A stretch of 64,000 nt of DNA from Selaginella moellendorffii (Eukaryota; Plantae; Lycopodiophyta). The notes beneath the pieces are model-generated. The model did no database searches and had not been told where the DNA came from. It worked only from the letters and a program-made list of their open reading frames with translations. The position numbers and the translations under genes were made by a program. Position 1 is the stretch's first letter. Every line of letters begins with the position of its first letter. The stretch spans positions 1 through 64,000 of the forward strand of contig NW_003314323.1 of NCBI RefSeq assembly GCF_000143415.4. Reading direction: 5' to 3'. Shown piece by piece: positions 1 through 21,403 of this stretch.

Positions 1-19
1 CAGGGCATCAGTATGCATT

Positions 20-1300
20 TTGGGTCAAAATTGCATGAGCCCACACGCTATAAAGTTTACCTGTACCAAAAATAGAAACAGCTTTATTTACTTGGGAATT
101 TAAGTGGTTGAGGCATTTTTAAACTTACAAACACATGCCCTACTTACATTCCTTTGGTTGCCTAAAATTCAAAAATATTATAAACCTTTCTTTTTGCATT
201 TTCAATGTTTTCAATTATGGTTTTTGATTTTCGTAGGACCAGCCTAGTAATCTATTTGCATCCCGTCATGTTTATAGCTAGCTTTCGTTCGTCCCCTTCG
301 CTAGCCTGAGATACATCTGCTCGGCATCTGCCTCTTACAGCATTTGCCCAGAAAGGGCATCTTTCTTCACGCAGCATTTGCCACATGTTTAGGGTTTAGG
401 GTTTAGCAATTCAGTAGCTTGATAAACATGCAAATACAGAACTTGATGCAAAATCCTTTGATATGTCACAATGCCCCTAGGACCATAAACACATTTCAAT
501 AGAGAGGGTCCTTTCATTTCATAACTCCTTACGTAGATCTTGGTGAAACCAGAGTTAGTGAAGTTAGTTTCTTGTGATCCCGCATCTGATTGTGATGTCC
601 CTTTGCAGTTTCGATGGAAAGGTCAATGCACACCAAACTGTAAAATCTTGGAGCAAAATAACGGTCGGATCTATGGCAAATGCCCCTGAAACATTGTAAG
701 GCTCGTGTGGTCTCATGTGGTGTCCGATCGAGATGCTTCTTTGCAGGGTCATCAAGAAAGACATTGTATACCATTCTGTAAAATCTAGTTGCGATCTAAC
801 GGTTGAATCTCCAGAAAACTCAAAAAAATCTCGCGCGTGTCAGAATATCCTAGGAATATACTCCTATGTGCCCCTGAAAATGACATGCGGCCCCACGCCA
901 TTCAAGAGATAATGCCAGATGACGCCGAGAATTTTTTGGTGCATTTTTTGGGTTCAAAATTGCATGAGCCCACACGCTATAAAGTTTATCTTTGCCAAAT
1001 AGAGAAAAGTTTATCTGTGTCATGTGAGGTAGTTACAGTCCTTTGTGCTTGGCATCTGCCTCTTGCAGCATTTGCACTGAAAGGGAATTTTTCTCCATTC
1101 AGCATTTGGCCCTGAAAATGGCATGCGCCCACACGCCATTCAAAGAATAACGCCACAGGACGCCTGGATTTTTGGGTTTAAAATGTTTAGGGTTTTTTAG
1201 GTTTTTTCAAAATATTTTGGGTCCAACGTTTTTTGGGTTTCTTTGGTTCAAAATTGCATGAGCCCACACGCTATAATATTGATTTGAGAGAAAAATAGAA
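20..1300 (+). repeat. Degenerate tandem/dispersed repeat units (~240 bp) each carrying the 22-bp dyad
   Basis: TCAAAATTGCATGAGCCCACACGCTATAA occurs near 25, 954 and 1248; CCCTGAAAATG-motif-TCAA near 872 and 1110; GGCATCTGCCTCTTRCAGCATTTGC near 323 and 1051. Confidence 0.85.
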
Positions 1301-1621
1301 ACAGATAGAATTTCTTTATTTAGCTGAACATCTGCCATTTTTGGAAATACAAGATGCTTTGGAATATCCAATCATGCATGGTATAAATATAGCGAGGGTA
1401 TTAAATGATATCCCAATCATGATCTTTCTTTTGGATTTCGCGTGCATGCAGTCCGAGGAATGATGACGTTGCGGATTTCTTTTGGATTTTGCGTGCTTGC
1501 ATGCGCGCGGCAATCCAGAAATTAATGGTGGCGCCCAAGTAAGAGGAATGATGACGCGGCGGGATTACCAACCGTTGTGACATTTCGCGCGTGTGAGGTT
1601 AGGTTTTGCATTTTGCTTTGT

Positions 1622-1780
1622 ACTCGCGCTCGCACACTCGCGCTCGCGCTCGCATCACACTTGCGCTCCCGCTCGCATCGCGCTCCCACTCGCGATCACG
1701 CTCACTTCTCTACAGGTTTCTCGTGTGCATCGGCGTCCACTCGCGCTTGCATCACACTCGCGCTCGCATCGCGCTCGTGT
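1622..1780. repeat. CpG-rich low-complexity (CTCGCG/CTCGCA)n tract
   Basis: Repeated ACTCGCGCTCGC units upstream of the large gene. Confidence 0.75.
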
Positions 1781-2245
1781 GCATCGGTGTCCACTTCAAG
1801 ACACACCCAGTTTGTAACTTCGCCGCCAACTCCGCCGCCCACTCCACCACCCACACGCAGCCCACTTGGCGTCCCGGGAGATTTCAGCACCACTCTCCAA
1901 CTGTAAGTGGCAGAGTAGCCTTGCTGCTACGATCCGCTGCACACACAGTGCACATTCGCCAACGAGTCCGGCCTCGATTGTCACGGCCTCCATTCGGCTT
2001 CAAATGGTAAGTCTTTTAGACCAAGTAGAAAATGGCATGAGGCCACATGCCATTCAGTAGCAACATTGGCATGCACCGATTGGGCTCTCGAGTGCAGTCC
2101 GGTTACAGATGGCGTGTAGCCTCACGCCATCTTAGGATGCAGCCTCAAGACATCTGATGCAGTGGTGAATGGCGTGTGGCCTCACGTTATTTCCAGCTGC
2201 TAGCTTTTCATCTGTCAGCTCTAATTGTTGTGCATTTTTGAACAG

Positions 2246-5200
2246 GCGAGGAATTGCATTCTTCTTCCAGCCACTGTCAATGTGGATGCAGAGAAGGGGG
2301 AGGAGCTCACCAGTTGGACTTTCGGGATGGAAGGCGAGGATCTGATGCTGTACAACACAGATGGTGGGAGAAAAGAATGCATGGGGATCCTCATCCAAGT
2401 GACAGACACTCCATGCAGTTCCATGCAAGAATATGGACTGGCACTTGTGGTAGAGACAGCGTCCGCCTTCAAGATCCACCTTGCACATCCTAGCGGCTTC
2501 CCGGAGGGGGGCAGCGGCTATGAGGAATTCCTAGAGGGAGCTAGGGAGAGGTTGTCCAGGAGGCCCACAATTTCAAAGACGCTGCGGGTCTATGAAGATC
2601 ACATGGAATCCACGGACCTCACCTACGGCGATGTTCAAAAACTATATTCCAACATTGAGCCGTTGAGAGTGCCTCCAGTTTGCGAAGCGAAGGGGAAGGG
2701 GGTCGATCTGGAAACTACCCCGAAGCAGAAAAGGGTGGTCAAGCTCAAGCCGACGTCCGACTCTGCTGCTCCAAAAAAGAAGCTACTCGGTGATGCCATT
2801 GCCTCGGGTTCGAACACTACACCCACCAAAAAGAAGAGCCGCAAAGAGCAGAAAGAGCAAGAAGAGGCAGCAAAAATCGTCGCAGATAATAGTACTTGTT
2901 ACTATTCCAACAAAGTATATACAATCGATGTGAGCCGTATCGAGATCCAAAGCAAATACAACCACAGGCTAGTATCTGATGAGTGGGTGGAGAAACTGAA
3001 GCAGAAGATGCTGGCAAGTCCAGTAACACCCGACATCGCAGACGTGATCCCCTACTACCGAACAATGAAGGGCGAGACGAGGTTTCCAGACTTGATCAAT
3101 AGGAAGGTGTTGGACGATCAGAACATCCGGTTCTATGCCGTCTCCGGGCAGCATTCTAGCTTGGCGATGCAACAGATAGTTGTGGATATTATGGTGGGCG
3201 AGGAGGTGAAGAAAGTCTTCAAGACAAGAGTTGTCCGCCTGATAAAAGGCAACTCGCCCCTCCGATCTATCATATACATCTCCCACGCGCAAAATGTCAA
3301 GCAAGAAACGTGCTACAAATCGGGTCTGCACGAGACATTGGCACGAACACGGAAGCTCTGGGTTCAACTGAAGAAGCCACAAAAACCAGGACAAGGACGT
3401 GCACTAGCAACTAGCGCCTGGCAGGTAAGCCTCGTTGCATGTGGCATAGCATGTGGCCTCACGCCATTTCCATTGCAGGAATTCTCGAGTCTTCTCTCGA
3501 AAACACTGGGGGTCAATGACACACTCAGCATCCATAACATTCTACTCGCGACAAAAGTTGTTTTTGACAAATGGGTAGATGTGCTGAGGAGGTACCATGA
3601 TGGGGAGTTGCTAAACTCAATGGGTGTGGAGGACGGCCGGAAGCCCAATGATTTGAAGCTCAACGCCTTGCGTTTCTCGCGGTCTCTAGACGACGACGAC
3701 CTTCTGACAGTGGCTAATGCTCTTCTACGTGGTGAGGTAGTCTTCAACAAGACCAAAATGACTCCCGGCCATATTGTGACATACGAGGACTTGTGCACGA
3801 CTCTGAGAGCTCGTGCGCTATTGAAGGATTGGATCTTCGAGCAAGTGGCCGTGGCGAGGGTGAGCATCGACACCACGCAAGAGATGATGGAAGAGCTGGA
3901 CTTGTCAAATGAAGACATCGACGAGTACGTGAAGGGGGCCCCCAAGTTCATCGATCTGCTGCGGGATGCCACGAAAAGTAAAGCTGAGAAGTTGGATCAG
4001 TATCCAAATTTCATTAAGAGGGATATCGACCGCCGGCTTCAGAAACAGCTCGACCCCGCAGCAGAGGCCTATCGAGAACCTTACCGGGTATACGTGAATT
4101 CGGATGAGGATCAAAGGTGGAGGAGCATCGTTTCCTGCGGAGATGAGCAGGTCAAGAACATCTTTTGTGTGATGGACTTCACAAACGAGGAGATCACTCA
4201 TGCAGACGAAGTCAGCTCCATCATTGACTTAATGGTGGGACTTGCGGAGGTGGAATCTTCAGTCCACTATATGATCTACGACTCCGAATCCTATCACAAG
4301 TTCTGGAAGGCCTTGAACGAGGTGAAGGCTCGGTTGAAAGGCAAGGAGATGCGGGAGATCCATGGGATAATGGCTAAGAAGAAGATACCGACGAATGTCC
4401 GCATCTTCATAGTCGCCCTTGTTATTGGTCCTGCAGCAGAGTGGGACTGGAGTGACTTCCCAGCTTCGTTCAACAAAGCCGATCGAATTGATCTGAGGGA
4501 GGTCAATTTACCCGTGCCTGAGGAACTGAAGACGGCTATGGAGCTTTCGAATCCAAAGAAAGCTCCAGGTGCAGCATGGGAAATGCTCAGCTGGGTCTTC
4601 AACGCAATAGCGGGTGACTCCAAGGGCAAATGCGTTGTCGAGTACAACTGCGGCGGACTATTCTTTCGAGCCGCACTACTCAAGGGTGTCCCGTGTGTTG
4701 CGGTGACAAACTCCATTGAAGAGGTGACTTCAATGGAGCATATAATTACAGTTGCCAAAGAAAAACAGTATCTTCTCTACGAACCTGGTGAGTACGCACT
4801 TTAAGTTTAAATGTTATCTCACAAGCTCTGTATGCAGGAGCGTGGCCACCCCCAGATGCTGAAACGGCGTTAACAGCTACTGATGTTAGGCCGAGGTCAC
4901 AACCTGCACAAGGTAAGGTCACGTGAGGCCTCACGCCATTTTGATTATAGATCGTTGTGAATATTCAGACACGAGGACTGAAAAGCGCACTGGTGGCGCG
5001 TCGAAGAAGGACAAACAGACAAGCAATAGGAAAAAAGGAGGTACAAATTATATTTGCAATGGCGTGTGGTCTCATGCCATTCCTTGCAGGAGACACTTCT
5101 TCAAAGGCAAAACAGGCAAGCACCAGCCAAGCTCAAACTGACAGTGGTCATAAAAAGCGAAAGCACGTTGGACAGTCGTCGGGATCAGAGGCGTTTGATT

Positions 5201-7609
5201 CGAAAAGGAAGAAGGGCAACGAAAAGATGATAGGTAATGCCTCGCGGTTATGGCGTGTGTGCTCATGCCATTCATTGCAGATCAAGGGCTGAGTGAAAGG
5301 AGCCAGTCACCACCTTCTGACTCAGATTCCTATGGCGGACTCCCCTTCCCCAATCTCAATGGAGAGGTACAATGGATGAGGGATGCTTTTCAAGTCAGGG
5401 CCACGTTTTTCTCATCTCGTCGTCTTCGAAGGGTGCAAGAACGTGCAGAAACCATGTTAAGACAGTCGGGTGAGGATACGGTCCTAGGTCACGCACTAAA
5501 ACAGGCTATGGATGTCTTGTATTTTGAGATGGAGACTCGGCCAGATGATTTTTCCAAGATGGTCCTGGAAAAACAAGCAATCCAGCCTGAGCAGCCTATG
5601 GAAGAAATGCAAGAGGGGGATGAGGAGCCAGAGAAAGATAATGAGCAGGAAGAGCAGAAGGACGAAGAGGAGGACAAAGAAGAGGAGGACGAAGAAGAGG
5701 AGGACGAAGAAGAGGAGGACGAAGAGGACTTGGATGGTCCTCACAATGGTGACGATCACAATAACGACGATGACGATGATGACGATGATGGCCAGCCTGA
5801 GGTGGCCAAAGAGCAGCGGAGGAAGGTCATACAAGACAAACCATCAGGTAAATAATAGTACATCCATTCCTAACCTTTTACCATTTCTAACATTGTCCAT
5901 GTAGGTCGCAGAAGAAATGGTAAGTAGAGATTATTCAGTTGAATTAAGATACAAACTCTAGCCTTTAGTGTCGAGGAAGGATAGTGCCAAGCAAGGGTCG
6001 AAACGTATGTCCAATCCTTCAGAATCAGCAGTGCGCCCAAGTGATATCGGTCCTAGTTCCTCAATAGCAGTTGATGGTAAATACAGTATAGTCGATTCAA
6101 TGTGCTAATGAGTTTGTTTTTAGTTGCACGGGAGGATACCATCTCAATCGAAGGGAGATATTTGGACATGCATATGGATCCGCCAGTGGACTCTACTTGC
6201 CTGCAAGAGTCATCAGAGCTGGTGGAGGCTACTATCCATATCAACGCCAAGCAAGCTGACCACGCTCCACTTGATGCTGCCCATACCACTGAGTCAATCT
6301 TGTCCACGTATCCAACTGACGGTGACCAGGCGCCATTGGACCCGCATGAGGCCGCCCCAGCCGCCGAGCCGGTCGTATCCTCATTTCCAACGTGTGCCCA
6401 ATCGTCTGACTACGCGCCGTTGGAACCTCCCTACACCGCCCCTGCTGCCTGTTCGGTCATGTCCACTTTGCCAACGGAGGCACCAGCTGAAATGGCGTGT
6501 GATCACACGCCATCGGAACCACCCCATGCCACTGTTGAGCCAGTTGTACCAGAGTCTACAGCTGAAATGGCATGTGCCCACACGCCATCGGATGCGATTG
6601 ACCCCACATTGCAGAGGAGAGTATTTCCGCCCTTCACGTTTCCTCGACCAAAACCCTCTGAACGACCATCGGGAGCACCATTCGCTAATATTGTAGATGG
6701 TAAAATTGACTTGTACCATTTTTTATGCTAACGCATTTCATTTCAGAGTCACGGCGAAAGTACTGTATCGTTTTTGATCTGAACGGTGTCCTTTTCTCCC
6801 ATGAGCGTGGCTCGTCCTCGAATGTCACTGCACCCTCCAAAGCCTGCGGTCGCAAGTTGGTCAAAAGAGACAGATTCACATTAATCACACGGGAGAAACT
6901 GCGGGATCTAATAATGACCATGCGACACTTAAAACAGAGGGCCGGGTTCAATTTGCAATTGGGAGTTTGGACATCCATGATGCGCCACAATGCATTAACG
7001 TTGCTACAGATGATGCACGATCAGACGCGAGTAATATTACCATTTGACTTTCTCCTAACGCAGGAGGATTGCTTGACTATGGTCCATGTGAGGGGTAGCA
7101 AGCCCATCTTCGTCAAGGCAGAGGCTGTAGTGATGAACTGGACTGCTAGGTCAAGTGAAATCCTCATCATCGATGACTCGCCGATTAAAACTGCAGCGAA
7201 CACGCACACATATGCAGTGCACCCCATCTCTTGCAGTATGGAAACTAGGGAGAAGAAACCGTATGTTCTGGGGGACCTTGCAAAACGGCTTGAAGCGATG
7301 GTGATAGAGAACCGGCCAGTCCAGGAGGTGGCTGCAGAAATCAACCAAATGGCAGATGGAACGGTATATCAGAAGCCATTTGATCGGACAGACACCAGTC
7401 ATCATTTATGGCATGTATATTGTCTAGCCAAGCACTATCCGCATCTCCATAATCTGCTCAACCGGATGGGTTCTTCGACCACTGAACATGAGCGTGGACG
7501 TATTAGAGAAGAGATGGCATTACTATTGGGTTTAAATCCTGATAGTGTGGAGAGTGATGAAATTCCAAGATTATTGTATAGGCGTTGGAGGCAAAAAATA
7601 ACAGTCTAA
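2246..7609 (+). CDS. Multi-exon protein: ParB/Srx-like domain + degenerate N6/N4 DNA MTase-like domain + acidic tract + FCP1/HAD-like domain; 5' exons unresolved
   Basis: GT-AG introns at 3425-3478, 4788-4837, 4913-4950, 5041-5089, 5234-5280, 5848-5904, 5920-5968, 6077-6123 and 6700-6746 join the separate ORFs into one open frame of ~1,640 codons. Motifs: FYAVSGQHSSLAM; GKCVVEYNCGGLFFRAALLKG; CIVFDLNGVL...IIDDSPIK. Confidence 0.72.
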
Positions 7610-8040
7610 GATGGCATGTATTTATTTAAAAATGTAACTTATTATGGCATGGGGTTCCATGCCATTGTATTAATATTAAAAGACAATTCTTTGAGAGGAT
7701 TTGCATTATACTAGAAGTGTTACAGCATGTTATTGGAAGTCTACGAAGTTGTTTTATTAATAAGGGGAAAGTAAAGATTGAATGGGGACTTGGGCTCCAC
7801 CTAGACTCGGAGCAACTGAGCCAATATTAAAAGGATGGAAAGAAATTGGACGACGATGACAAGGAGAAGAGAGAGGTGAAGCAGTGAGAAGTGATTGAGT
7901 AGACATTTCCTTGTTTAAAATAAAATGGCATGTGCCTCAATGCAGTTGAATTTTGTTATATTTATATACTATATAAAGGTTTGGAAACCTTATTTTACAA
8001 GTGGGATAATGACAATTCCCACTTTAACGAAATAGAGCTT

Positions 8041-11000
8041 GGATCCTTTAGCCTACGACACCTCAAGGAGTTGGTTCCTTACAACTCCACCACCCATAGA
8101 AGAAGTTCGATGCCCACATCAAACGTCTCTTTTATCCTACGACTTGTTGACCATGTCTTCGGGGGCATCCCCCCACTTAGTGGTGTGCCTAAGTTAGCCT
8201 CCTTGGCCAAGAGCCCATGACAACGAAATATAGATGTCCCTATATCCCTCACCTCACCACGCCCTAGTATGGGGTCGGGACTTGAACCCAACCTTGCTTT
8301 ACTAGGGGGTTGGGACTTGAACCCAACCTCCGTAGAATATGTCTACGGATTCGACATCCCCGCAGGGAGTCAGGCATAGTTCCCTACACCTAATCGACCT
8401 AGCTAACCCATGCTAATTAGCTTACCTTTAGCGCGCCTTTGGGTCCCAACATGTGTCATTGCTCAACTTCACAAATTGATACTTTCATTGAACTTTGCAT
8501 AAGTACATAGAGTTATGCCTTGCAGAAATTCCTCCACTAGATCTCGCACGTTTGCTAGGTTCTCCTCCAATTCCCATGTTGCTTCGCAGTGTGGAAATCC
8601 TTTCCACTTCACATGGAACTCTCTCACTTTGCATCATTTTCACTTATTCTTGCATGCATTGAGGATGGCCTCCACTTCGTATTCTTCTTCCTCTTGGATA
8701 ACCTCAAGTAAAGGTCTTATTTGGTCCTTACGAAACGGGTCCTCAAAGTACGGCTTAAATAAGTTCACATGGAACACTGGGTGCATTTTCCCCATCTCTC
8801 AAGGAAGTCAGAGACGGTAAGCCACTTTACTAATTCGTGCCTCAATCTCGTAAAGCCCCACGAACCTGCTTAAGAAACTCAAGATCAATTCATTTATAAG
8901 AATATATGCATTTTTACCTTTGGGTCAACTTCCAGCTAATCCCACTTGGTAGCCTGAGGTTCTTAGTGTTCAACCACACCTTCTCCCTAGCTTGGAACTC
9001 TACATCCCGGCGCTTCTAGTTCGTGTACTTAGTTTGCCTTTGTTGAGCCCGTTCTAAGGAATCCCTCACTAGATTCCAAATGTTGAGCCTTTCCACCGTG
9101 AATGCCTCCACTACGGGTAACTCTCCATGATATTCGGCCATGCCAAGTTCCATAGGACCTTCAATAGCTTGCCCATTGATCACTTCCCATGGATTCACCC
9201 CGATACTCGAATGTGGTGAGTTGTTATAACACATTTTCGCAAGTCCCAAATGACTTACTCAATCGTTCTGGTCTCCCGAGACATAGCATCGCAAATAATC
9301 CTCCAGCTGCCTATTCACCCTTTCTATTTGTCCGTCTGTCAAGAAGTGTTAGTGCCATCAAACTTGACTTAATACCCAATACCTGTCTGTGGGTGATAGG
9401 CTGTGCTGAATTTCAACTTGGTGCGATACTGTTCCAGGAGAGTTCTCCAGAACCTACTGATGAAGATCTTATCTCGATCCGAGATAATCTCTTTCGGCCT
9501 TCCCCGCACTTGAACCACTTGTTCGAAGAACAGCTTTGCCACACCTTCCGCATTCACTTTCGTTGTAGTGGGTATGAAATGTGCCATCTTCGAAAATCAG
9601 TCCACCACCACGAATATCGCATCAAACCCCTCACTTGGGGGGAGTCCCGTGATGAAGTTCATCGTGAGACATTTCCACAGATGATCTGGAATTGGGATGC
9701 TTTGTAACAAGCCCCCACTAGCCTTAGTCATGACTTTGACCTGCTGACATGTTGGACATGTCTTTTACATAGTCTTGGACGTCTTTAGCCATATCTGGCC
9801 AGTGATATTTCCTCTTAAGTAAGCCCATCGTCTTGGGCACTCTGCTGTGTCCCGCAAGAGGTCCATCATGACACTTTTCTAAGGCTACCTTCCTTAGTTC
9901 CCCTTTTGGAACATACACCCTCGTTTGCTTGTAATAAATGAGTCTGTTGTGTTCCATATAGTCTGTTTTCTCTTCCGTTGGTAGCTCACCTCTTTGGTGA
10001 GCTTCCCGTGCCTCTAGATTCCTCAGCAACACTTTTTGTGCTAGACCATCATTCTCATATGCTGTCCGCACATCATCCCAAAAGGTTGTTGTCGTGCTGG
10101 ATATTACTAACTTCAAGCTCGCTTTTTGACTTAGCGCATCTACCACGATGTTGCTCTTCCCAGGCTTGTACAAAATCTCGCAATCAAACTCAGCCAACGC
10201 ATTGGCCCACCGACCCTGTTTCCCTCTCAGGTCAGGTTGTGACAACTGTTTTGTTGCCATATTGTCCGTGTAAACCTTGAAGTGTCTCCCAAGGTAGTGT
10301 CGCCACTCCTTGAGCGCCTTGACCACCGCAAACAATTCCTTCTTGTGGGTAGGCCACTTTCGTTGAGCCTTGTCCAACTTCTTCAAGAAGAACACTACTG
10401 GATGGTTGTCTTGCTTCAAAACTGCACCCAACGCAAAGTCTGAAGCATCCGTTTCTACCTCAAAGTCTTTACCAAAGTCTGGTAACGCTAACACGAGAGC
10501 CTTCCTCAACTTCCTTTTGAGGTGGACAAATGCCGCATCACATTCTGCTATCCATACCATCTTCCCTTTTCCCATTTGGTCCGTTAAGGGTAGGGCTACT
10601 CTCGAATAGTGTCTAATAAACTTTCGGTAGTAGTTGCATAGCCCCAAGAATGCTCTTAACTCGTGTACATTTGATAGTCACTCCCAATTCTGGATTGCTT
10701 GGACCTTCTTAGGGTCCACCTTGAGCCTATTCTTGCCCACCACATGCCCGAGAAACTTTACCTCTTGTTAAGCAAAGTCACATTTGCTCTCTTTAGCATA
10801 CAGCTGGTGTTCCCTTAGTTTCTCAAACACCTTTGTCAAGTGTTTGGCATGCTCCTCTAGCGTTTTGCTATAGATCAAGATGTCGTCAATATAGACGACC
10901 ACAAAGTGATCCAAATAAGGTACAAAGATGTGGTTCATCAACACTGAAAATGTTGCTGGCACATTGCATAGCCTGAAGGGCATCACCAGAAACTCAAAGC

Positions 11001-14000
11001 TCCCATACCTTGTTTGACAGGTTGTCTTCTCGACATCTTCCTTTGCTACCCTGATTTGGTAGTATCCTGACCTTAGGTCAATCCTTAAAAAGTATTTTGC
11101 CTTTCCCAACCTATCGAACAGGTCCTCAATCCTTGGAAGGGTACTTGTTCTTCTTTGTATACTTGTTAAGCAATCGTTAGTCTATGCATATGTGCATAGA
11201 TCCATCTTTCTTTTTCACAAATAACACCGACACCCTATATAGCAACTTGTCAACCTAACATACCCTTTGTCCACCAACTCCTCTAGTTGGCGCTTGAACT
11301 TCTTGAGTTCCTTTTCGTTCAAACAATAGGGGGGAAAAACCACCGCCTCAGCACCCTTGACCAGCTCAATCTTATGTTCTATCGGTCGTGTGGGGGGCAA
11401 CCCCGCTGGTAGCTCCTCCGGCATGGTATCTTGGAATTGATCCAACACCCACTGGATCACTAAAGGTACTTCTTCTGTTCCCATTTTTTTGTCACTCTTC
11501 ACCGAGAGTAAGCACAAAAATGCTACCTTGGTTCCTTTAGTGAGTTGTCCTCTCGTGGACACCAGGTTTAAGCATGAATCTTTGGCCTTGCATTGCCCTA
11601 CCTTTAGATCTTGGGCCTCCACCCTGGATCTTCTTCCTTGGGCATTCGCTAGTACCACAAGGTTCCTACCTTGTCCATACAGGGCTACCACGAACTGATT
11701 AAACCAATCCATCCCGAAGATCACATTAAATCCCGCCATGTCCAACACGGTGAAATCCATGTCTACTTTTCAAATCCTTACTTCGACTTTCGCTTGTTAA
11801 AATACCTCATCGGTGCTTTGGCTACCTTGAACAAACTCTATAGTCCTTGGTTCGCCTAGCCGCTGCACCATTAGTCTAGTTTACCAAACTATGTCTACAG
11901 CCACAAAATTATCCGAAGCACCTGTGTCAATAAGGATCTTAACAAAACTACCTCCGAGCTTCCCTCGAAGGGCTAGTAGATGTCGCGAACGACTCTATAC
12001 CAAAGTTGCTCGTGTAATGAGTAACTTTGAGCTAGAGACTGGATCACATACCTCATTTTGGATTTCATTTGACTTAATGGCCATATTGGCTCTGGCCTTC
12101 TTCGGGTAGGGACATTCCTTCGAAAAGTGTCTCGCTTCTCCACAATTGTAGCACACGTGCTGCTAACCGACTTGACCTTCTTATCTGTGGCTTTGTCTCT
12201 TTTTTCTTGACTCCCCCACGTACTTGCTTGTTGGCCACCAGATTTGCCTTTCCGGAACCCCGAAGACTCATTCTTAGAAAAACCCTTTTTGAATTTCCCT
12301 TTGCTATATGTTCCCCTTGGTTTGGCCCCTTTGCTAAATGTGGACCTCAACCCCGTCGTGTTCCCCTTTCGCAGGTTATCATTGAAATGCACCTTGATGG
12401 CCGCATCCAACACTTCTTTGTAGTTGGTCGGGTTTCAACACATCACCTCACTGAGAGCCCAAGTTTGCAAGCCTGATATGAAGGCATGGAACGCATCCAT
12501 ATCCCCCATATCCGTGACAAGTATCCTTTTTGCTATAAACCCATTCACAGACTCCTGAATGGTTCTGGTTTGCTTCAGCCTACTCAGCTCATCTCTTAGA
12601 TGCAGAGTAGCATTTGGAGGAATGTAAGTCGCACGGATCCTCGCCTTCATCATTTCCCAAGTGGCCACCGGTCCTTTGTTGGCCTCTATCATTCTCCACC
12701 AAGACTTGGCATTATTTGCTAAGTATGGTTTTGCACATGGGACCTTCTCTGAGCTCGGTAACTGCAACGCTCGGAAGTAGTCCTCCATATCATAAAACCA
12801 ATCCTCCACCACCTTATAGTCGTTCACTCCCTTGAAGACTGGTGGGGGCTTTGGTTTATACTTGGGAAATGCCTGAGGGACTGATTCCACTTCGGTCTGT
12901 TCGACTTTGTTTGGTTTTGCCTCAGTCCCTGTCGAATGATCCGCACCTTCTGCGCTACCAACATCTGCAGTCTTTTGCCTTTTCTTTTGCTTCTCGTCAC
13001 ACTTTAGGTTGCGTATGAGAGTCTCTAGCAGGGCATTGGTCTGTGCCAATTGTCCTTCTAGAATGTCCAATCGCGCCTTGGACGACCGAACCTCACCACC
13101 AAAATCCTGTTTGGAAATTTCCTCACTGAAGTCCTCCTCATGCAAGGATTCCTCATCCATAGCCTCTTGTTCAACCGGAGGCTCCAGCTCTGGAAGAGGT
13201 TCTGTCTCCGCCTTGGTTCGTTTCCGCCCTGCCTTCGCCATCTCCCAGCAATCCGCCTCTATCCTTCGCTAGAACTGAGGAAAAGGCTCTAATACCAAAT
13301 TGTAAGCCACAAATTTTTCATTTCCAATTTGCCAACTTACCTTGTCTATCCGTCCAACACTGCCTTGGCTTTTGCTAAGTTCCCTCGCCAAGGTTCCCGC
13401 CTACAGTACCAGCTCCTACTTGGTCCTACTTGGTTTCAGCTACTTACTGCACGAGCAACAGAGTGTTAGCCATCCATCCACAGATTCCTAAATCTCTCCC
13501 AATCCCCCTCCCTGGTTTAGACTGGACTTACAGTTCGGCTACACTCCCCGCAGGCACAAGCAGCCAAGCACACCAAGCCTCCAGGTTCTTAACATCCCTT
13601 TGTACCACAAGACTTGATCATGAGACCCTCTAAATCCCAAGTCTTGGGTGCAACACTTGCTTTGGGATGCCAGGGCGAAACACTGTGGCATAATGGCCCA
13701 GTATGGGTACCTCTACCCCCCCTCTTCCATCCTGAAAGGAAAGCCCAAGCCCCTAAGAAGGGCAAAGACCAATGAGTTGCAAGGTACTCAAATGGGGCAC
13801 CACTCCATATGAGCCAGGAGCACCGCAGTCGGTTTCCCTTTTGGGAGTGGGAGCTGCTCTTGAGCACTTCCTAGGGTGGCCCCTTTGGCACCACCCAAGT
13901 CCATGCTCACTCCCACCCAAGGCCTTTTGGCCCTAGTCTCAACCTCAAGTCAGTTTGGAAGCACCACTATAGAGTTCCTTCAAAATTGGTTCTTGAACCT

Positions 14001-14459
14001 TACTATCCCTACTATACTTTTGGAACCCCCTGTAGCCCCCCCCCTAGGAGCGCAAGCTTTGGCTTGACCTATATTAGTACTCGGACTCAGTCTCGGACTC
14101 GATCTTAGACTCAATCTAGGACCCGACTTCGGATTCGGTCTTGGACTCGATCTTAGACTCGATCTCGGACCTGATCTCGGACTCGACTTTGGACTCAATC
14201 TCAAACTCGGTCTCGGACCCGATCTCAGATCTCGGTCTCGGACCCGATCTCAGATCTCGGACTCTGTCTCAAACTTGGTCTCGAACTCGGTCTCCGAGTC
14301 GGCCTCGGACTCAATTCCGGACTCTATCATGAACTCAGTCTCAAAGTCAGTCTTGGACTCGATCTCAGACTCAGTCCCATCCGATGAACTCTTTGTCATT
14401 TCGGTCATGCTTTTGGGGATCCTTTACCTTACGACACCTCGGGGAGTTGGTTCCTTACA
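8041..14459 (-). mobile_element. Decayed Ty3/gypsy chromovirus LTR retrotransposon
   Basis: 5' LTR 13301-14459 (TGTAAG...CTTACA). iMet-type PBS 13286-13297. gag 12435-13241, zinc knuckle, protease IDTGAS, RT YIDD (10768-11109), RNase H/INT (9724-10647). Chromodomain YEVEAIL..VKWKGF..EATWE at ~8520-8690. PPT at 8084-8097. 3' LTR truncated to 8041-8083. Many stops and frameshifts. Confidence 0.93.
14079..14372. repeat. ~12-bp minisatellite (CTCGGACTCGAT-like) inside the LTR
   Basis: More than 20 degenerate tandem units. Confidence 0.85.
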
Positions 14460-14460
14460 G

Positions 14461-15705
14461 AGAGCTTCCAAATCAGGGAAAGGAAAAGTGTCCCTCTATA
14501 AAGCTACACTCTCCGACCTCACTAGATCTCTTGAGCAATCATCAAAAGCTTTGGCTGCACAGGAAGCAAGGTTTGCTGGTACAAGTCCAAACTTAAACAA
14601 GCTTCGAGAGCGGGTTGGTAGAAGGAAAACACCAGCAATAGGGTCTAAGATGGTGGGGGAAGTTGTTATTGGAACTCTTATGGAATCAAGTTATGAACCA
14701 CTTGGGGGCATGAGGACAATGCGTTTGAAGCATCGACAGACATTTGATGGGCCCAACATCACTCCTTCTAGCTTTCACTGTCCAGAGTTTGACTACCATT
14801 CTGTTCCACAACACCGGAGAAAAACTAAAGAACATGGAGTGGAGGAGGTGCCAATTGTTACACAAGTAAATCCAGTGCTAAAGGTTGAGAAGATTATTAC
14901 TCGTGAGCCAATTTTTCATATCAACTGGGCAATTTGAAGAGTCAATACCAAAAGTAATGCATGTTGCTTTGGAATGATTAGGAGTCGAGGCCAGTGTCTT
15001 GCATTTGTGTGCTCAGGTTCAAGTTCTTCAGCAGTACCATGTTTTTGGGGCTGTTGAGATCTAGGGGTAAAGGGCTATCAGTCAAGTTGGATTTACTGTT
15101 GTGGGACTGATGTTACTCATACAAACCGGATCCACAACTCAATTATCTCAAAGCCAAATTCTGTGCTAGAGGAGTGGCCAGTTGAGCGAAGCTACAATCT
15201 TTTGAAAGAAGAGATTGAAAGTTTAGAGAGAGCTGGTTTCAAATTGAAGACTTCCTCAAATGTTCTTATTGATACTGTTATGCCACCAATGTCAACAATA
15301 GACCAGCATACATGACTAGCTAGAAATGGGAAGGCTGTACAATATATATCTTCCATTTCAAAAGGTGCACAAGAGAAGATCAAACTAGCAAAGGCGTTGA
15401 AATGCATAATCACAAAGATAAATTACATCAGTGTTGTGGCTAAGGAATTTGTTGTTGTGACTAAGTCGTCAAAGGGTACGAGCTACACTATCAGAATCTA
15501 TGAAAATCCATCCTATACCTATCCAAATTTTACACAAAGGGAGAATAGAGGAAAGGTATATTTAACCTGCAAGCACATTTATTACATTTTTATGCAAGAA
15601 CTAAACCAAGATCTTAAGGTTGACTATCATATCCATCAAGCAAACTTTGCAATTGCAAAGTTTGAGATAGTGTTCGGATCTATATTTATATTTGTATTTT
15701 ATTGA
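14461..15705 (+). pseudogene. Degenerate SWIM zinc-finger gene remnant, probably transposon-associated
   Basis: GTSYTIRIYENPS...FTQRENRGKVYLTCKHIYYIF resembles a SWIM finger with the first cysteines lost; upstream frame interrupted by stops. Confidence 0.45.
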
Positions 15706-15799
15706 TCAAATTTACTTGGAAATATAGATTAAATCAAATTTTGAAAAATGAAAAAATGTTAGTTTGGGACAAACCAATGTTTTCCTCTAATTTTATAGG

Positions 15800-16546
15800 A
15801 ATTTCAGTTCAAGATTGTGTTGAAGCCTGGACGAAGTCATAAAATGCTTGATCATCTTTCAAGGTTGCTAGCTTCTACTATGGATGGAATTACTGGAGTG
15901 GATGATGAGCTTCCAGATGCTCAACTTTTTCAAGTAGTTAGCGAGGAGGAAGTGGATGTAGAGGTTTTCCAAGTTGAAGCAATACCTGAGTGGTACCATG
16001 AGGTGGCACAATTCTTGTTAAGTGGCAAGTATCCTTTAGATTTTTCTAGTAAAGAGAATAAGCAGTTACTTCTTCAATCTCAGTGCTTCACTTTGATTGT
16101 TAGGCAACTATACCATATGGGAAATGATGAAGTGTTGCAGCAATGTGTGTTAGCTCATAAGGTACCTGAGGTTATTTTTGCATATCATGACTCACCTTTT
16201 GGAAGACATTTTTGTGAGGAAGTTACAATGGAGTTGGTAAAAAGGACAGAATATTAGTGGCCGACTATGCACCAGGATATTTCAAAGTATATGAGAGGTT
16301 GTGATCCATGTTAAAAGACTAAGAAACCATCAAGAAGAGATATAATGCCATTGCAGCCACTTTTGCTAGTATTGCCATTTGAGAAAAGGGGAATTGATTT
16401 TATCAGGCCTTTTCCAGCAAGCAAGCATACTCATTGCAAGTATGTGCTAATTTATACTGACTATGTGACCAAGTGGGCCAAAGTAAAAGCATTGAAGGAA
16501 GATATAGGCAGAAAAGTTGTTGAGTTTTTGTACAAGCAAGTTATTA
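15800..16546 (+). mobile_element. Ty3/gypsy pol fragment (RNase H end-integrase)
   Basis: KPGRSHKMLDHLSRL, YHDSPFGRHF, PFEKRGIDFIRPFP, DYVTKWAK with stops. Confidence 0.8.
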
Positions 16547-17183
16547 TCTGAAGAAGTGCATGCAAGGTCTAACAGTGAAGGTGTTTTGAACATATAATGC
16601 ATCATATACTTTGAAGACATATGTGACTTTTACTTTGTCAAGGCCAAAATGATCTGACAAATTACTTGTTACAGTTGAAGGAGACGCTTGGTGCAACTCT
16701 TAACAAGAAAACTGCAGAATACTCCTGAGCAAATAAGGAGGTAAGATAACATTCTGTTTGGTTAGCACTTTGTTGACAGGTCGCACTTCCATGTAACGGA
16801 CAGTATCCAAGGGCCATAGTGCTCAGATGGAAAGATTGGAGTCAAAGATTGCAGAGTTAAAGGTCCGTTTTTCTTTATGGTTTGTTTGAGGCTGACGCTT
16901 TGCTATTGGCAGACACTGTGTGAGAAACTTGCAACAGACTTGGGGAAAGTTTAAAAGGGCAAACCTCCAGCTAAAAGGCCTCCAGTAAGTAGATGATTTT
17001 TACGTTTCTACTTTTATGATACTGACTATTCATGTAAATTCCAGGTTGGAAAAGAAGTTGGTTCAAAGCGAAGATGACCTTGGATCTGTCCTCCGTCAAA
17101 GAAGATCTCAAAACCGTGGCGCTGGGAACGTCAAAGATCAACTAACTACATGGATCCTCAAATAACGGTTGCTCATTGAGAAG
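16547..17183 (+). pseudogene. TOP1: DNA topoisomerase IB 3' gene fragment with introns (copy a)
   Basis: [36 protein letters not shown](Y); stop and frameshift present. Confidence 0.85.
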
Positions 17184-17464
17184 GTAACCAGGCACTTCGT
17201 ACTTTCATTTCTTTTATTTCTCTTACTGAGGCATGCTGTGGCAGTGGCACAAGCAGCTTTTCCAGTGACTTGACCATGGTATACCATGCTCAACTCAGGA
17301 GATTTGGATCATAGGTTTTTAATTAGTCATTGCTGGCCAAATTCGCGTCGGAGAGAAAAACTTGGAAGAAGGTGACTCCCCCCTGTCAATATAACGTCAA
17401 CACTTGCGAGACTCTATCTCAGTCTTGATGATCATGGTCTCACTGTGAGAACTGGAGGGTAACG

Positions 17465-19384
17465 TCACAGACGAGTGGAGCTGAAGTAGGATCCAGGTAG
17501 TTGCAAGCTGAAGCTTCTGGAGCTACCATCACTTGAAGGTGGTGGCAAGTCAAGAACGTCTATGTTACCTTCGAGCATATCCAGGACGTTTCTCATAGAG
17601 GGCCGGATTTCTGCCTCGAGTTGGATGCACCACAGTCCGATTTTCACGTACCTCTCAGCATCCTTGAGCTCCAAGCCACTGCTAGTGCTGGCGAGATCAT
17701 TGTCCAGGAGCTTGTCGTCAATAAGCTCGACGATGTTGCCACTGTGAAACATGCTCAGCGCGGTTTCGCCTAGGAAGCGCGGTTGTGAGGAGGAAGAGGA
17801 GGAAGAGGAGGATGGAGGATGGAACTGGATGGTGCGCTTGGAGCTGACGAGCTCGAGCAGCACAATTCCAAAGCTGTAAACGTCGGTCTTGTCCGTGACT
17901 TTGGTGTGGAGCCACTCAGGTGCCATGTATCCGGGAGTTCCTCGCATGACAGTCACCACTTGGCTCTTTCCCCGCTCGGCAAGCTTGCTCAGGCCAAAGT
18001 CGGAGATTCTGGCTCGTAAGTTCTCGTCCAGGAGGATGTTTTGAGGTTTGATATCCAGGTGAAGAACTTGCTCCCGGCATCCTTCATGGAGGTATGTGAG
18101 TCCTCGAGCAACATCTATCGCGATTGAGTGCCTCTGATTCCAGTTTAACAGCAGATTTGCTGATCCGCCACCTTTGTCATCATCGTTCTTGGTGAAGATC
18201 CACTTGTCCAGTGATCCATTGGGCATGAACTCGTAGACAAGCAATGCAGCTGGTCCCTGGATGCAAAATCCCCGGAGCTTTACCAGGTTGAAGTGGTGAA
18301 TGCTGCCAATGGACATTACCTCGGCCTTGAACTGCGAGTGTCCTTTCGACGAGCCTTGGATCTCTACGTCCATCTTCTTCACAGCAACGAGGCTCCCATC
18401 CGCAAGCTCTCCTTTGAAGACGGATCCAAATCCTCCAGCTCCAAGCGTGAGCTCGGGATCAAAGTTTCTAGTTGCCATCTTCAAGTCGTGATAGCTAAAC
18501 TGGTGCGGAAGTATCTCATCGAGCCTCATTCCTTCGATGAGCGCTTGCTTTTCCATGCGCCTCCTCCGAGATCTTCTCCACTTCCTGGTTGCTACAAAGA
18601 TTACGACGCTAAGTACCACCCCGGCCACAGCGCTTGCTACCCCAGCGATCACTCCCTCATAATTCTTTTTGCTTCGAATGGACTGTGGAAGATTACTATC
18701 AATGACATTCCAGGTGATATTTCTCAAGATTCCAATGCCTGGATCATACCCAAGCTGCCTCCACACTTGCTCGTTCGCAGCCACAGCGTTTGGAGCACAG
18801 GGCTCCGTGAACGAATGATCCCTGAGACACCCGGCTGGGGAGTAGCATTCAGCCACCATTCTAGCGACCGCAGTCCGTCCGTTTGGAGCTAAAACTTGGA
18901 TGTTTTTCGAGCACAAGCTTCGGTCTTGGGTATACCATCCAGTGGCGAGCGCTGCCATGGGTTCCATATTCCATTGCGAGGATGTGCACGGCCTGAGAGA
19001 CCCCGGATTTGAGAGGTTGAAGCTTGTGACATAGAGGACGGCATTGTTGGTCCCTTGTAAATTTGCAGAGCAGATGAAAGTCCTGTAAGCCAGGCCTGGG
19101 ACGCAGCAATTCGGGCAGTCTGGAGCGATGGTGGCATTGAAATTGACTATGGAGGTGGGCTTGCAAGTTTCGGAATCGCTGAGATATGGCTCGGATTGAT
19201 TGCTCGATAGGTAGCAGGATGAATTGCGGAGTGAACGGTTGCCGCTGAGCATGGGCTCCGGGAAACAAAGAGATCCATTCGGGCAGTCGCTTAACGAAGA
19301 ACATACCTGTTGTTGGGCTTGCGAGTGGAAGCTCCTGGTGCTACATAGCACGATCATGAAGCACATGAGAATCGACACCTCCAT
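17465..19384 (-). CDS. Kiwellin-ectodomain receptor-like kinase A (non-RD), intronless, 639 aa
   Basis: Signal peptide; kiwellin/DPBB motifs MAALATGWY...CSKNIQV...NGRTAVA...EC...GC...EPC.PN...VWRQLG; TM segment; kinase GAGGFG, VAVKK, HLDIKPQN, DFG, GTPGYMAPE. Confidence 0.92.
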   Translation of the reverse strand: MEVSILMCFMIVLCSTRSFHSQAQQQVCSSLSDCPNGSLCFPEPMLSGNRSLRNSSCYLSSNQSEPYLSDSETCKPTSIVNFNATIAPDCPNCCVPGLAYRTFICSANLQGTNNAVLYVTSFNLSNPGSLRPCTSSQWNMEPMAALATGWYTQDRSLCSKNIQVLAPNGRTAVARMVAECYSPAGCLRDHSFTEPCAPNAVAANEQVWRQLGYDPGIGILRNITWNVIDSNLPQSIRSKKNYEGVIAGVASAVAGVVLSVVIFVATRKWRRSRRRRMEKQALIEGMRLDEILPHQFSYHDLKMATRNFDPELTLGAGGFGSVFKGELADGSLVAVKKMDVEIQGSSKGHSQFKAEVMSIGSIHHFNLVKLRGFCIQGPAALLVYEFMPNGSLDKWIFTKNDDDKGGGSANLLLNWNQRHSIAIDVARGLTYLHEGCREQVLHLDIKPQNILLDENLRARISDFGLSKLAERGKSQVVTVMRGTPGYMAPEWLHTKVTDKTDVYSFGIVLLELVSSKRTIQFHPPSSSSSSSSSQPRFLGETALSMFHSGNIVELIDDKLLDNDLASTSSGLELKDAERYVKIGLWCIQLEAEIRPSMRNVLDMLEGNIDVLDLPPPSSDGSSRSFSLQLPGSYFSSTRL

Positions 19385-19606
19385 AGTTCAGTAAATACCA
19401 CTCTTCTTGGGCATCATGGAAGTGTCTCTTCGGCCCACAAATTGAAAGTTTGGCAGCTGGCTGCAGGTCAGTGTCAAGGTTTTTCTGCCCTGGCAGGACA
19501 CTAGCAGGCCTGCCTGGGTCTAGCTCCACTTGAGACGGCAAAAGACTTCAGACTTTTTCTAGAGCTTTTAAACCAGTTTACCCGCGACACGTTTGCAATT
19601 CCAGCC
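19385..19606. promoter_or_regulatory. 222-bp divergent intergenic region (putative bidirectional promoter)
   Basis: Separates the two RLK start codons; homologous copies at ~22623-22924 and ~43426-43736. Confidence 0.65.
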
Positions 19607-21403
19607 ATGGATCATCGCAGCAGCACTTTCTTCGCGCTCGCGATGATCTCACTCGTCAGCGCCACCGCGCAGCATTTCTCCTCCTCTTGCGGCACGAGAT
19701 GCGACTCTAGGCGCGATTGTTCTGGCGGCCTCGTTTGCAATCCTGTTAGCAAGACCTGCGATGGCGATCCAGGAGCTAGCACCCTTTCCTGCCCAATTCC
19801 CGGCTGCGAGCCCGCCCAGAGCTTCATCTACTCGAATGCCACCGCCCACGATCCCGAGTACTGCGTCGACAACAACACCTACCAGTTCTTCAATTGCTCG
19901 CCTAAAGAGCAGTCTCTCAACTTCGCGGCTCTCTACTACACCGAGCTGGAGGGAATCCCCACGGCATGCAATCGGTCCACGCCTTACAAGAACTCGGAGC
20001 TCCTGGCAAACATGGCCACCGGATGGTTTGCCAGTGGATCCTCGTGCTTCAAAGAGATTGTGATCACGGCAGAGAATGGGATGAGCGTCACGGCGACGGT
20101 GGTGGACATTTGTGCATCAACGATCGGGTGTAGCCCATTGACTGGATACTACGAGCCGTGCACGCCCAGATCGCTGGGAGGGACGAGAGGTGTGTGGGAA
20201 GCGCTGGGGCAGACGTATTTTGATAATGTGTTGCAAGTCACTTGGAAGTGGAAGGGCGAGGATTCGAAAAAACGCACTCTTTTCATTGCACTGGTTTCTA
20301 GTGGAGCGCTCGTTGCCTTGGCGCTCTTAGGCATTTTGTGGTGGAAGGTCGTGAGACGGTCCAATGCCGCCAAGAACAAGCTCCATCTGGGGGATCTCAC
20401 GGATGCCCCGCGGCAAATCAGGTACCAAGAGTTGTATCGAGCGACCAAGGGATTCCAGAGCAAGGTGGGAGAGGGAGGGTTTGGGACTGTGTTCAAGGGG
20501 ACGCTGCCCAGCGGAGAGATTGTGGCGGTCAAGAGGATTGGCGGTGGATCGCGGCAGGGGGACAAGCAATTTAAAGCGGAGGTGATGTCGATTGGCAGCA
20601 TCCATCACCTCAATCTCGTCAAGCTGGTTGGATTTTGCCTGCATTCTCGCCACAACTTACTCATCTACGAGTTCCTCGCCAATGGCTCGCTGGATAGATG
20701 GATTTTTGCCAAGGACAAGTATCTGCCCTGGGCAACCAGGCTTTCCATCGCGCTCGACGTCGCTCGAGGGCTTGCGTATCTCCACGATGGATGCCGCGAG
20801 AAGGTACTCCATCTAGACATCAAGCCCCAGAACATCCTCCTGGACGAGAAGATGAATGCCAAAATCGCCGACTTTGGATTCTCCAAGCTCATTGACAAGG
20901 ACAAAACTCATGTCGTGACAGTCATGCGGGGTACGGTGGGATACATGGCTCCCGAGTGGCTCCACTCTCGTGTGACGGACAAGACGGACGTCTATAGCTT
21001 TGGGATCGTCCTCCTGGAGCTCGTCTGCTGCATGAAGGCCGTGGAGTATCCCTCGGACTCACAGATGGACGTTGGGTTCCTCGCCCAGACTGCTTTCAAC
21101 AAGCTCGACAGTGGAAACGCCATGGACTTGGTGGACGATCGGCTGGTCAAAGCCGAGGACGGTGGTGGTTTATCCTTGAGTGGCTTCGAGAACATCATCC
21201 GGATCGGGCTATGGTGTGCACAGGAGGATCCTTTGCAGCGACCAACGATGTCTGTGGTGGTGAAGATGCTCGAGGGTGCCATGGATGTGTTGGCGTTCCC
21301 TCAGCTGGAGAGACCCGCTGCACAGGATTCATCGCTCCTGGTGAGCAGCAGCGAGAGCTCGGGATTGCAAATCTCCATCTCGGTCTCGGACTTGGCTCGC
21401 TAA
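19607..21403 (+). CDS. Kissper-Kiwellin-ectodomain receptor-like kinase B (non-RD), intronless, 598 aa
   Basis: Signal peptide; kissper-like CGTRCDSRRDCSGGLVC...CDGDP; kiwellin ANMATGWF..C...NGMSVTATVVDIC...GC...YEPC...VWEALG; TM segment; kinase with HLDIKPQN. Confidence 0.92.
   Translation: MDHRSSTFFALAMISLVSATAQHFSSSCGTRCDSRRDCSGGLVCNPVSKTCDGDPGASTLSCPIPGCEPAQSFIYSNATAHDPEYCVDNNTYQFFNCSPKEQSLNFAALYYTELEGIPTACNRSTPYKNSELLANMATGWFASGSSCFKEIVITAENGMSVTATVVDICASTIGCSPLTGYYEPCTPRSLGGTRGVWEALGQTYFDNVLQVTWKWKGEDSKKRTLFIALVSSGALVALALLGILWWKVVRRSNAAKNKLHLGDLTDAPRQIRYQELYRATKGFQSKVGEGGFGTVFKGTLPSGEIVAVKRIGGGSRQGDKQFKAEVMSIGSIHHLNLVKLVGFCLHSRHNLLIYEFLANGSLDRWIFAKDKYLPWATRLSIALDVARGLAYLHDGCREKVLHLDIKPQNILLDEKMNAKIADFGFSKLIDKDKTHVVTVMRGTVGYMAPEWLHSRVTDKTDVYSFGIVLLELVCCMKAVEYPSDSQMDVGFLAQTAFNKLDSGNAMDLVDDRLVKAEDGGGLSLSGFENIIRIGLWCAQEDPLQRPTMSVVVKMLEGAMDVLAFPQLERPAAQDSSLLVSSSESSGLQISISVSDLAR

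Follow-up and report, generated by a model that had tools for sequence, protein, structure and literature searches.

Here, we describe a 22-bp palindrome that is massed in and around one predicted, intron-rich gene of the lycophyte Selaginella moellendorffii. The gene lies in the first 64,000 nucleotides (nt) of contig NW_003314323.1 (assembly GCF_000143415.4, forward strand), and this whole stretch is called the window in the following. We tentatively read the palindrome as the docking site of the ParB-fold protein that the gene itself appears to encode, and we suggest that one of its arms, reading CTCAY, doubles as the branch point in three (possibly four) introns of about 50 nt. ParB and Noc have palindromic binding sites, and because the fold of the gene's own product is ParB-like, this protein is our candidate binder. 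An earlier note, made from the letters of the window, had put forward the idea of binding sites that serve as splicing signals. The idea has gained sequence support in three introns and a candidate binder in the gene, and it is possible for a fourth intron with the donor 4913.

The palindrome has the mirror-image consensus ATGGCRTGW-N4-WCAYGCCAT. A scan with the pattern ATGGCRTG-N6-CAYGCCAT, allowing up to three mismatches, found 16 copies within 30-7946 and one across the remaining 56 kb of the window, compared to a mean of 0.16 and a maximum of 2 copies in 100 shuffled sequences. A weight-matrix scan leaves a clear score gap under copy number 16. Non-coding DNA holds 14 of the 16 copies. Introns make up 12% of the gene, yet seven of the nine copies inside it are intronic (p=1e-5). 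Apart from the four copies in short introns, which are listed with the gene below, the palindromes are found at these places:

30..1274: five upstream copies (30, 880, 959, 1118, 1253) inside duplicated units; 30, 959 and 1253 have CTCAY on the minus strand
2032..2190: three copies in intron 1 (2032, 2109, 2169)
6492..6588: two exonic copies (6492, 6567) within a 75-bp coding duplication, with CTCAY on neither strand
7644..7946: two downstream copies (7644, 7925)

We saw no minus-strand gene in 1-2000 whose introns could house the upstream copies. Among the 32 half-sites C5 and T7 are unchanged throughout. The CG step at half-site positions 5-6 has changed to CA 15 times and to TG not once (11 and 0 when duplicates are merged). 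Decay of methylated CpG yields both products and TG still pairs in RNA, so the absence of TG suggests that the sequence is read by a protein. The 'spacer' is likewise conserved, with T in 15 and A in 11 half-sites at position 9 and G in 29 at position 10. Half-sites that have A at position 9, 11 of the 32, read CTCAY on their opposite strand. The palindrome conserves letters and not pairing, which favors a DNA-binding site over an RNA hairpin.

The gene is a single open frame once ten GT-AG introns have been removed. The features that matter for the branch points are the following (negative numbers count back from the intron end):

2004..7609, plus strand: predicted gene with 11 exons and 1642 residues; the liverwort protein P0022 has the same domain order
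2007..2245, plus strand: intron 1 (239 nt) with copies 2032, 2109 and 2169 and its own branch candidate CTAAT (A 2224, -22) outside the palindromes
3425..3478, plus strand: intron (54 nt) with palindrome 3446-3467 and predicted branch A 3461 (-18), at an apparently ancestral position
4913..4968, plus strand: intron donor 4913 with half-decayed palindrome 4918-4939; acceptor 4950 (branch A 4933, -18, within the palindrome) or 4968 (branch A 4944, outside)
5041..5089, plus strand: intron (49 nt) with palindrome 5059-5080 and predicted branch A 5074 (-16)
5234..5280, plus strand: intron (47 nt) with palindrome 5250-5271 and predicted branch A 5265 (-16)
4788-4837, 5848-5904, 5920-5968, 6077-6123 and 6700-6746, plus strand: five short introns without palindrome, used as internal control; nearest branch candidates at -17, -15, none, -16 and -16

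The exons are 2004-2006, 2246-3424, 3479-4787, 4838-4912, 4951 (or 4969)-5040, 5090-5233, 5281-5847, 5905-5919, 5969-6076, 6124-6699 and 6747-7609, with the start ATG at 2004 and the stop at 7607-7609. The GT-AG ends and the restored frame are those of U2 spliceosomal introns, and retention leads to an early stop for nine of the ten, the exception being intron 3425. In introns 3425, 4913-4950, 5041 and 5234 the CTCAY arm is the sole match to the branch consensus YTNAY from -45 to -10, and its A stands at -18, -18, -16 and -16. The remaining six introns have YTNAY at -15 to -22 in five cases and none in one (5920); the palindrome-free intron 4788 likewise has CTCAC. Shuffled intron interiors show YTNAY at -15 to -22 in 11-21%, and the ten other palindrome copies offer YTNAY in only four of 20 readings (copies 30, 959, 1253 and 2032, all minus-strand CTCAY). 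This low number adds weight to the double use, but the four also mark CTCAY as an ordinary variant of the motif. The probability that four introns would have the palindrome so placed by chance is 0.0065 (spread of at most 2 nt) or 0.025 (all A at -15 to -22). Judged by this placement, the CTCAY arm is likely the branch point in introns 3425, 5041 and 5234. For intron 4913 it is a possible one: the acceptor 4968 keeps the frame equally, results in an intron of 56 nt that is nearer the usual size (the other eight short introns have 47-57 nt) and brings its own YTNAY, TTGAT at -25.

Several statements of the earlier note concerned this arrangement. The six copies for which it read CTCAY on the plus strand do so, and the others read CACAY, CCCAC or TCCAT as it had said, with TCAAT at 7925. 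The palindrome was said to end 9-11 nt before the intron end; the distances are indeed 11, 11, 9 and 9 nt in 3425, 4913-4950, 5041 and 5234, except that intron 4913 may end at 4968. The claimed CTCAY bias is strong on the plus strand (6/6 versus 0/10, p=1e-4). However, four of the ten other copies have CTCAY on the minus strand, and with oriented copies and merged duplicates the contrast weakens to 6/6 versus 2/6 (p=0.03) or 4/4 versus 2/6 (p=0.07). That the sense orientation is found only in introns is also partly circular, because the copies outside introns define the polarity largely through positions 9 and 14 and the tail. Copies 2109 and 2169 were thought to precede candidate acceptors, and this part had to be given up. 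Among the 14 YAG acceptors of intron 1 only 2245 keeps the frame, and the intron has its own CTAAT at -22, so that neither copy is a branch point of the productive splice. We have therefore rejected both as branch points, no frame-keeping acceptor following either.

One may ask whether the overlap is incidental. Local duplication or gene conversion could have multiplied the copies, in one case along with an acceptor, and a motif of 22 nt hardly avoids the branch region of a 50-nt intron. Introns 5041 and 5234 are indeed 90% identical over their last 31 nt, intron 4913 may end at 4968, CTCAY is present in about a third of the half-sites, the oriented contrast is modest, and intron 5920 illustrates that the consensus is not obligatory. 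Against this, the three secure introns have no other branch candidate at all, although 16-25 placements of the palindrome were possible in each, and intron 3425 is not significantly like 5041 or 5234 outside the motif. We consider an incidental overlap distinctly unlikely.

The predicted protein combines three parts in the order ParB N-domain, degenerate methyltransferase-like part and FCP1-like HAD domain:

2912..3310, plus strand: ParB/Srx N-terminal domain, with GQHS at the nucleotide-binding loop
4031..4786, plus strand: degenerate N4/N6 methyltransferase-like region, aligned with the part of P0022 and P0018 that matches PF01555 below the cut-off
6761..7207, plus strand: FCP1/NIF-like HAD domain in the last exon (PF03031, E 9e-6, above the cut-off)

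The AlphaFold model of the ParB N-domain, which is encoded in the first large exon, has a predicted local distance difference test score (pLDDT) of 81. Its best Foldseek matches are Noc (E 6e-4) and ParB (E 9e-4), and the VIA structure comparison gave Z 11.7 with a root-mean-square deviation of 1.9 over 94 residues. The canonical ParB proteins have the arginine-rich cytidine triphosphate (CTP)-binding motif GxxRxxA. The window protein lacks this arginine-rich motif and reads GQHSxxA at the site, where GQH and the Ala are invariant across 19 sequences. Methyltransferases of the N4/N6 type carry the catalytic motif (D/S/N)PPY, which is absent from the alignment of the methyltransferase-like region; this region is probably catalytically inactive. 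Pfam gave no PF01555 match in the window protein itself, and its relatives stay under the cut-off.

A full HMMER search revealed 18 relatives with 25-33% identity. Ten of these were looked up; five are gene models of Riccia sorocarpa, and a sixth, the liverwort protein P0022, has ParB-like, PF01555-like and NIF parts in the same order as the window protein. Streptophyte clusters of the Atlas have 813 residues at 0.97 and 1673 residues at 0.93. The six Riccia records come from contigs of five differing sizes and contigs of the sequence run X1 are 90-100% alike to the window, which fits a dispersed family. Of 23 further sequence data sets, eight contain the stretch or part of it; four data sets of 2-4 million letters share 0.77 of its words, as a high-copy repeat would, but we do not count them as evidence. 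Word-indexed protein searches gave no match, exact look-ups of ten window frames found none, and neither metagenome nor viral contigs contained related DNA. The PDB sequence search returned chance matches only, PHROGs nothing below E 0.05, and Rfam over 1-8300 no family and one weak match (E 0.22). Searches of the openly accessible literature (subscription papers lay outside their scope) brought up no title or opening of an abstract on a ParB/methyltransferase/FCP1-like family or on palindromes as branch points in a transposon gene. Hence, this family of ParB fold, degenerate methyltransferase and FCP1-like domain, which is present in liverworts, is apparently undescribed.

The relatives also bear on the origin of the introns. 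The earlier note had offered, as a second option, that the motif generated them: an inserted unit with branch point, pyrimidine tail and AG would have become an intron in an introner-like manner. We scored the spliced and the unspliced window protein against the five Riccia models and aligned 13 other relatives at the start of intron 3425. The Riccia models have no Val at this column and continue collinear with the spliced window protein, which scores higher in four of five comparisons (spliced/unspliced 162/141, 165/144, 147/128 and 134/117; P0010 125/125). In 11 of the 13 others, the column of the intron start is occupied by a Val (codon GTN), after which the frame stops or drifts; ten of these 11 have an aromatic residue two residues ahead of the Val, as in the window. 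The remaining two end earlier or fall short of the position, one each. Since a Val codon begins with GT, we read it as a shared phase-0 donor. Judged from these alignments, intron 3425 appears to be at an ancestral position and older than the motif, and the palindrome has probably not created it.

For the other introns a motif origin finds no support, since they are unlike outside the motif. No significant likeness was seen between the 5' parts of the four introns (best p=0.04 in 36 pairs, uncorrected), and the two marks of introners, likeness over the whole intron length and, for 3425, a position absent from relatives, were not found. All eight introns in the low-complexity linker (4788-6746) are phase 1, palindrome or not, and the exon units that flank them show no significant likeness (best p=0.03 in 15 pairs). 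The linker also contains a 15-nt micro-exon (5905-5919). What speaks for an inserted unit is a T-rich tail with AG that follows copies in one orientation (880, 1118, 6492 and 6567 on the minus strand, 2169 on the plus strand), and three of the four introns lie in the linker, where relatives for comparison are lacking. Altogether we regard a motif origin of the introns as very improbable.

A third suggestion of the earlier note was an RNA hairpin that allows autoregulated splicing. The stem would hide the branch A, and a factor or condition opening it would switch splicing and hence the protein. Compared to 200 shuffles, the fold is good in introns 5041 (z -2.5, 5/200) and 5234 (z -1.7, 8/200), where stems of 8-12 bp cover the branch A and both introns have the G-U-compatible combination on the sense strand. 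Retention of either intron would truncate the protein ahead of its acidic and HAD parts. In intron 3425, however, the sense strand pairs at six of eight positions and folds no better than the shuffles (z +0.45), and 4913 reaches z -1.2. The letters are kept and compensating changes are none. Any palindrome folds, and with its letters conserved and seven of its copies outside the gene this one has at most a secondary role as RNA; the hairpin as the primary function is quite improbable.

How could a docking site come to coincide with a branch point? We suggest that a mobile element carries the gene as a passenger and that a dimer of its protein would bind both 10-bp half-sites. The bound protein might mark or protect its own element, like VANC on VANDAL. 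Exons would tolerate the palindrome badly, so that copies would gather in non-coding DNA. In introns of about 50 nt, a 22-bp site could survive in the 3' half only with A at half-site position 9, which would place a sense CTCAY at -16 to -18. Given this variant requirement in short introns, the double use would be a packing solution within pre-existing introns and not an intron origin.

A related but unlikely version gives the palindromes a stronger role. The land-plant element would carry a parS-ParB pair derived from phages or bacteria, the protein would load at the palindromes and spread over the element, and sites that double as branch points would resist erosion. Where sites are branch points, neither erosion by the host nor a change of the element's code could occur without breaking the message. 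Site occupancy may then also tune co-transcriptional splicing of the own gene. The double use could also be the same and the binder another one, either a transposase or second protein encoded left of the window or a host factor, as for the subterminal repeats of DNA transposons, while the ParB-fold protein does something else. This is unlikely in our view, as nine of the 16 copies lie inside the gene and the fold family is known for palindromic sites. Still, five copies stand in the upstream repeats and two near the right end, the element runs past the left edge of the window, and the part that follows the ParB domain matched no DNA-binding domain.

Several observations weigh against the palindrome as a docking site of the gene's own protein that doubles as branch point. 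Four sequence runs were mapped, of which X9-X11 are RNA (about 12 in 100 of each were read) and X1 is RNA only by a guess. None of the four contained a spliced read for any intron, and X9-X11 have next to no reads on the gene. Three X1 contigs cross or enter introns unspliced, although X1 may be DNA, and intron 1 holds a small number of unspliced sense reads that stem from a diverged copy and are altered within palindromes 2109 and 2169. These two copies have the sense CTCAY and lack a productive acceptor, so the variant occurs without branch duty. With the three secure introns only, the placement chance is 0.036 and 0.057, and as introns 5041 and 5234 may go back to one copying event, the independent cases could be two. 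The shared donor of the relatives is read from a Val residue, at the protein level. A match to a helix-turn-helix was not found behind the ParB domain; this region is helical with pLDDT 60-79, in a model that included 18 intron-coded residues. Lastly, no transposase frame was seen in 1-8000 and the left end lies outside the window, so mobility is inferred.

The element has a probable right end, next to which other mobile DNA begins:

7976..8035: probable right end of the element, two short hairpins followed by the last 43-48 bp of a long terminal repeat (LTR)

Both hairpins are perfect (stems of 6-7 and 8 bp) and resemble those at the 3' ends of rolling-circle elements, except that the terminal letters are not CTRR; they may help to define the class of the element. 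From 8041 to 14459 a decayed Ty3-type retroelement follows on the minus strand, with pieces of gag, reverse transcriptase-RNase H and integrase and a left LTR remnant of 43-48 bp. Ahead of the gene, the stretch 1400-2003 is CpG-rich (observed/expected 1.3, compared to 0.6-0.8 in its surroundings) with CTCGCG repeats; a related contig differs here by one deletion and one insertion. Within it, the 39 nt at 1901-1939, about 65 nt upstream of the ATG, attract 120-247 reads per RNA run. Nearly all of these continue into other sequence on both sides, and a perfect donor word stands at 1903. This other sequence appears to be the 3' part of cytosolic large-subunit ribosomal RNA (rRNA). The 39 nt are likely a captured rRNA fragment in the element's 5' region.

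Further to the right, the broken frames at 14950-17400 look by eye as if they came from the C-terminal part of topoisomerase I, from a SWIM-finger protein and from a piece of an integrase. At 17465-21403 lie two divergent receptor-kinase genes, each a single frame, whose outer domain is a Kiwellin (PF24300), and broken Kiwellin-kinase copies near 22900, 28200, 36900 and 42800 complete a local cluster of this unusual fusion. The window also contains an ArfGAP gene with a predicted 46-nt intron, as well as Ty3-type retroelements. Such a gene content is that of a land plant whose introns are very small.

If our reading is true, a ParB-type protein and parS-like sites are at work in a eukaryotic genome, as a second and unrelated solution to the self-recognition problem that VANC has solved. 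It would also show cleanly how the same letters can act at once as a DNA site and as a splicing signal. CTCAY and CACAY are both found among the copies, and a single base should separate the two functions, which makes the idea directly testable.

The closest working analog is the anti-silencing system VANC/VANDAL of Arabidopsis, carried by Mutator-like transposons with a transposase. Parts of PMC5735166 report that the short motif bound by VANC21 lies in the introns, the intergenic stretches and the terminal non-coding DNA of the element that encodes it, that VANC motifs are non-palindromic words of 8-9 nt, and that binding and demethylation have been shown for VANC. Both systems have an element-coded protein and an element-specific short motif that is massed in non-coding parts, partly in tandem repeats. 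Unlike VANC/VANDAL, the case described here involves a palindrome of 22 bp that overlaps predicted branch points, and its putative binder joins a ParB fold to methyltransferase-like and HAD parts.

With introners and sister stwintrons the palindrome-bearing introns have in common that several of them share an internal palindrome. In the portions of PMC8469720 that treat these families, whole introns are alike and have a central 10-nt palindrome, whereas here only the motif is shared, copies also lie outside introns and one intron is apparently ancestral. The small size of the introns may be seen beside a statement in part of PMC6157073, by which Selaginella intron lengths group with fungi. Fusions of phage ParB with N4/N6 methyltransferases share the order of ParB followed by a methyltransferase-like part (Atlas leads 0.79; PF01555 in relatives), but here an FCP1-like domain comes after the methyltransferase-like one, which seems to be inactive. 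Sections of PMC4738411 name ParB-linked or ParB-HTH-fused methyltransferases in chlorophytes, chytrids and haptophytes, and not the land-plant family described here.

To the bacterial systems ParB-parS and Noc with its binding sites (NBS) the likeness lies in the N-terminal fold and in repeated palindromic sites around the gene. The gene differs in being eukaryotic and rich in introns, its product has GQHS where the arginine-rich CTP motif would stand and no matched helix-turn-helix, and the window contains no ParA. Because the CTP motif is changed, the helix-turn-helix unmatched and the carrier element putative, the case belongs to neither system; it resembles VANC/VANDAL in its layout and ParB-parS in its parts.

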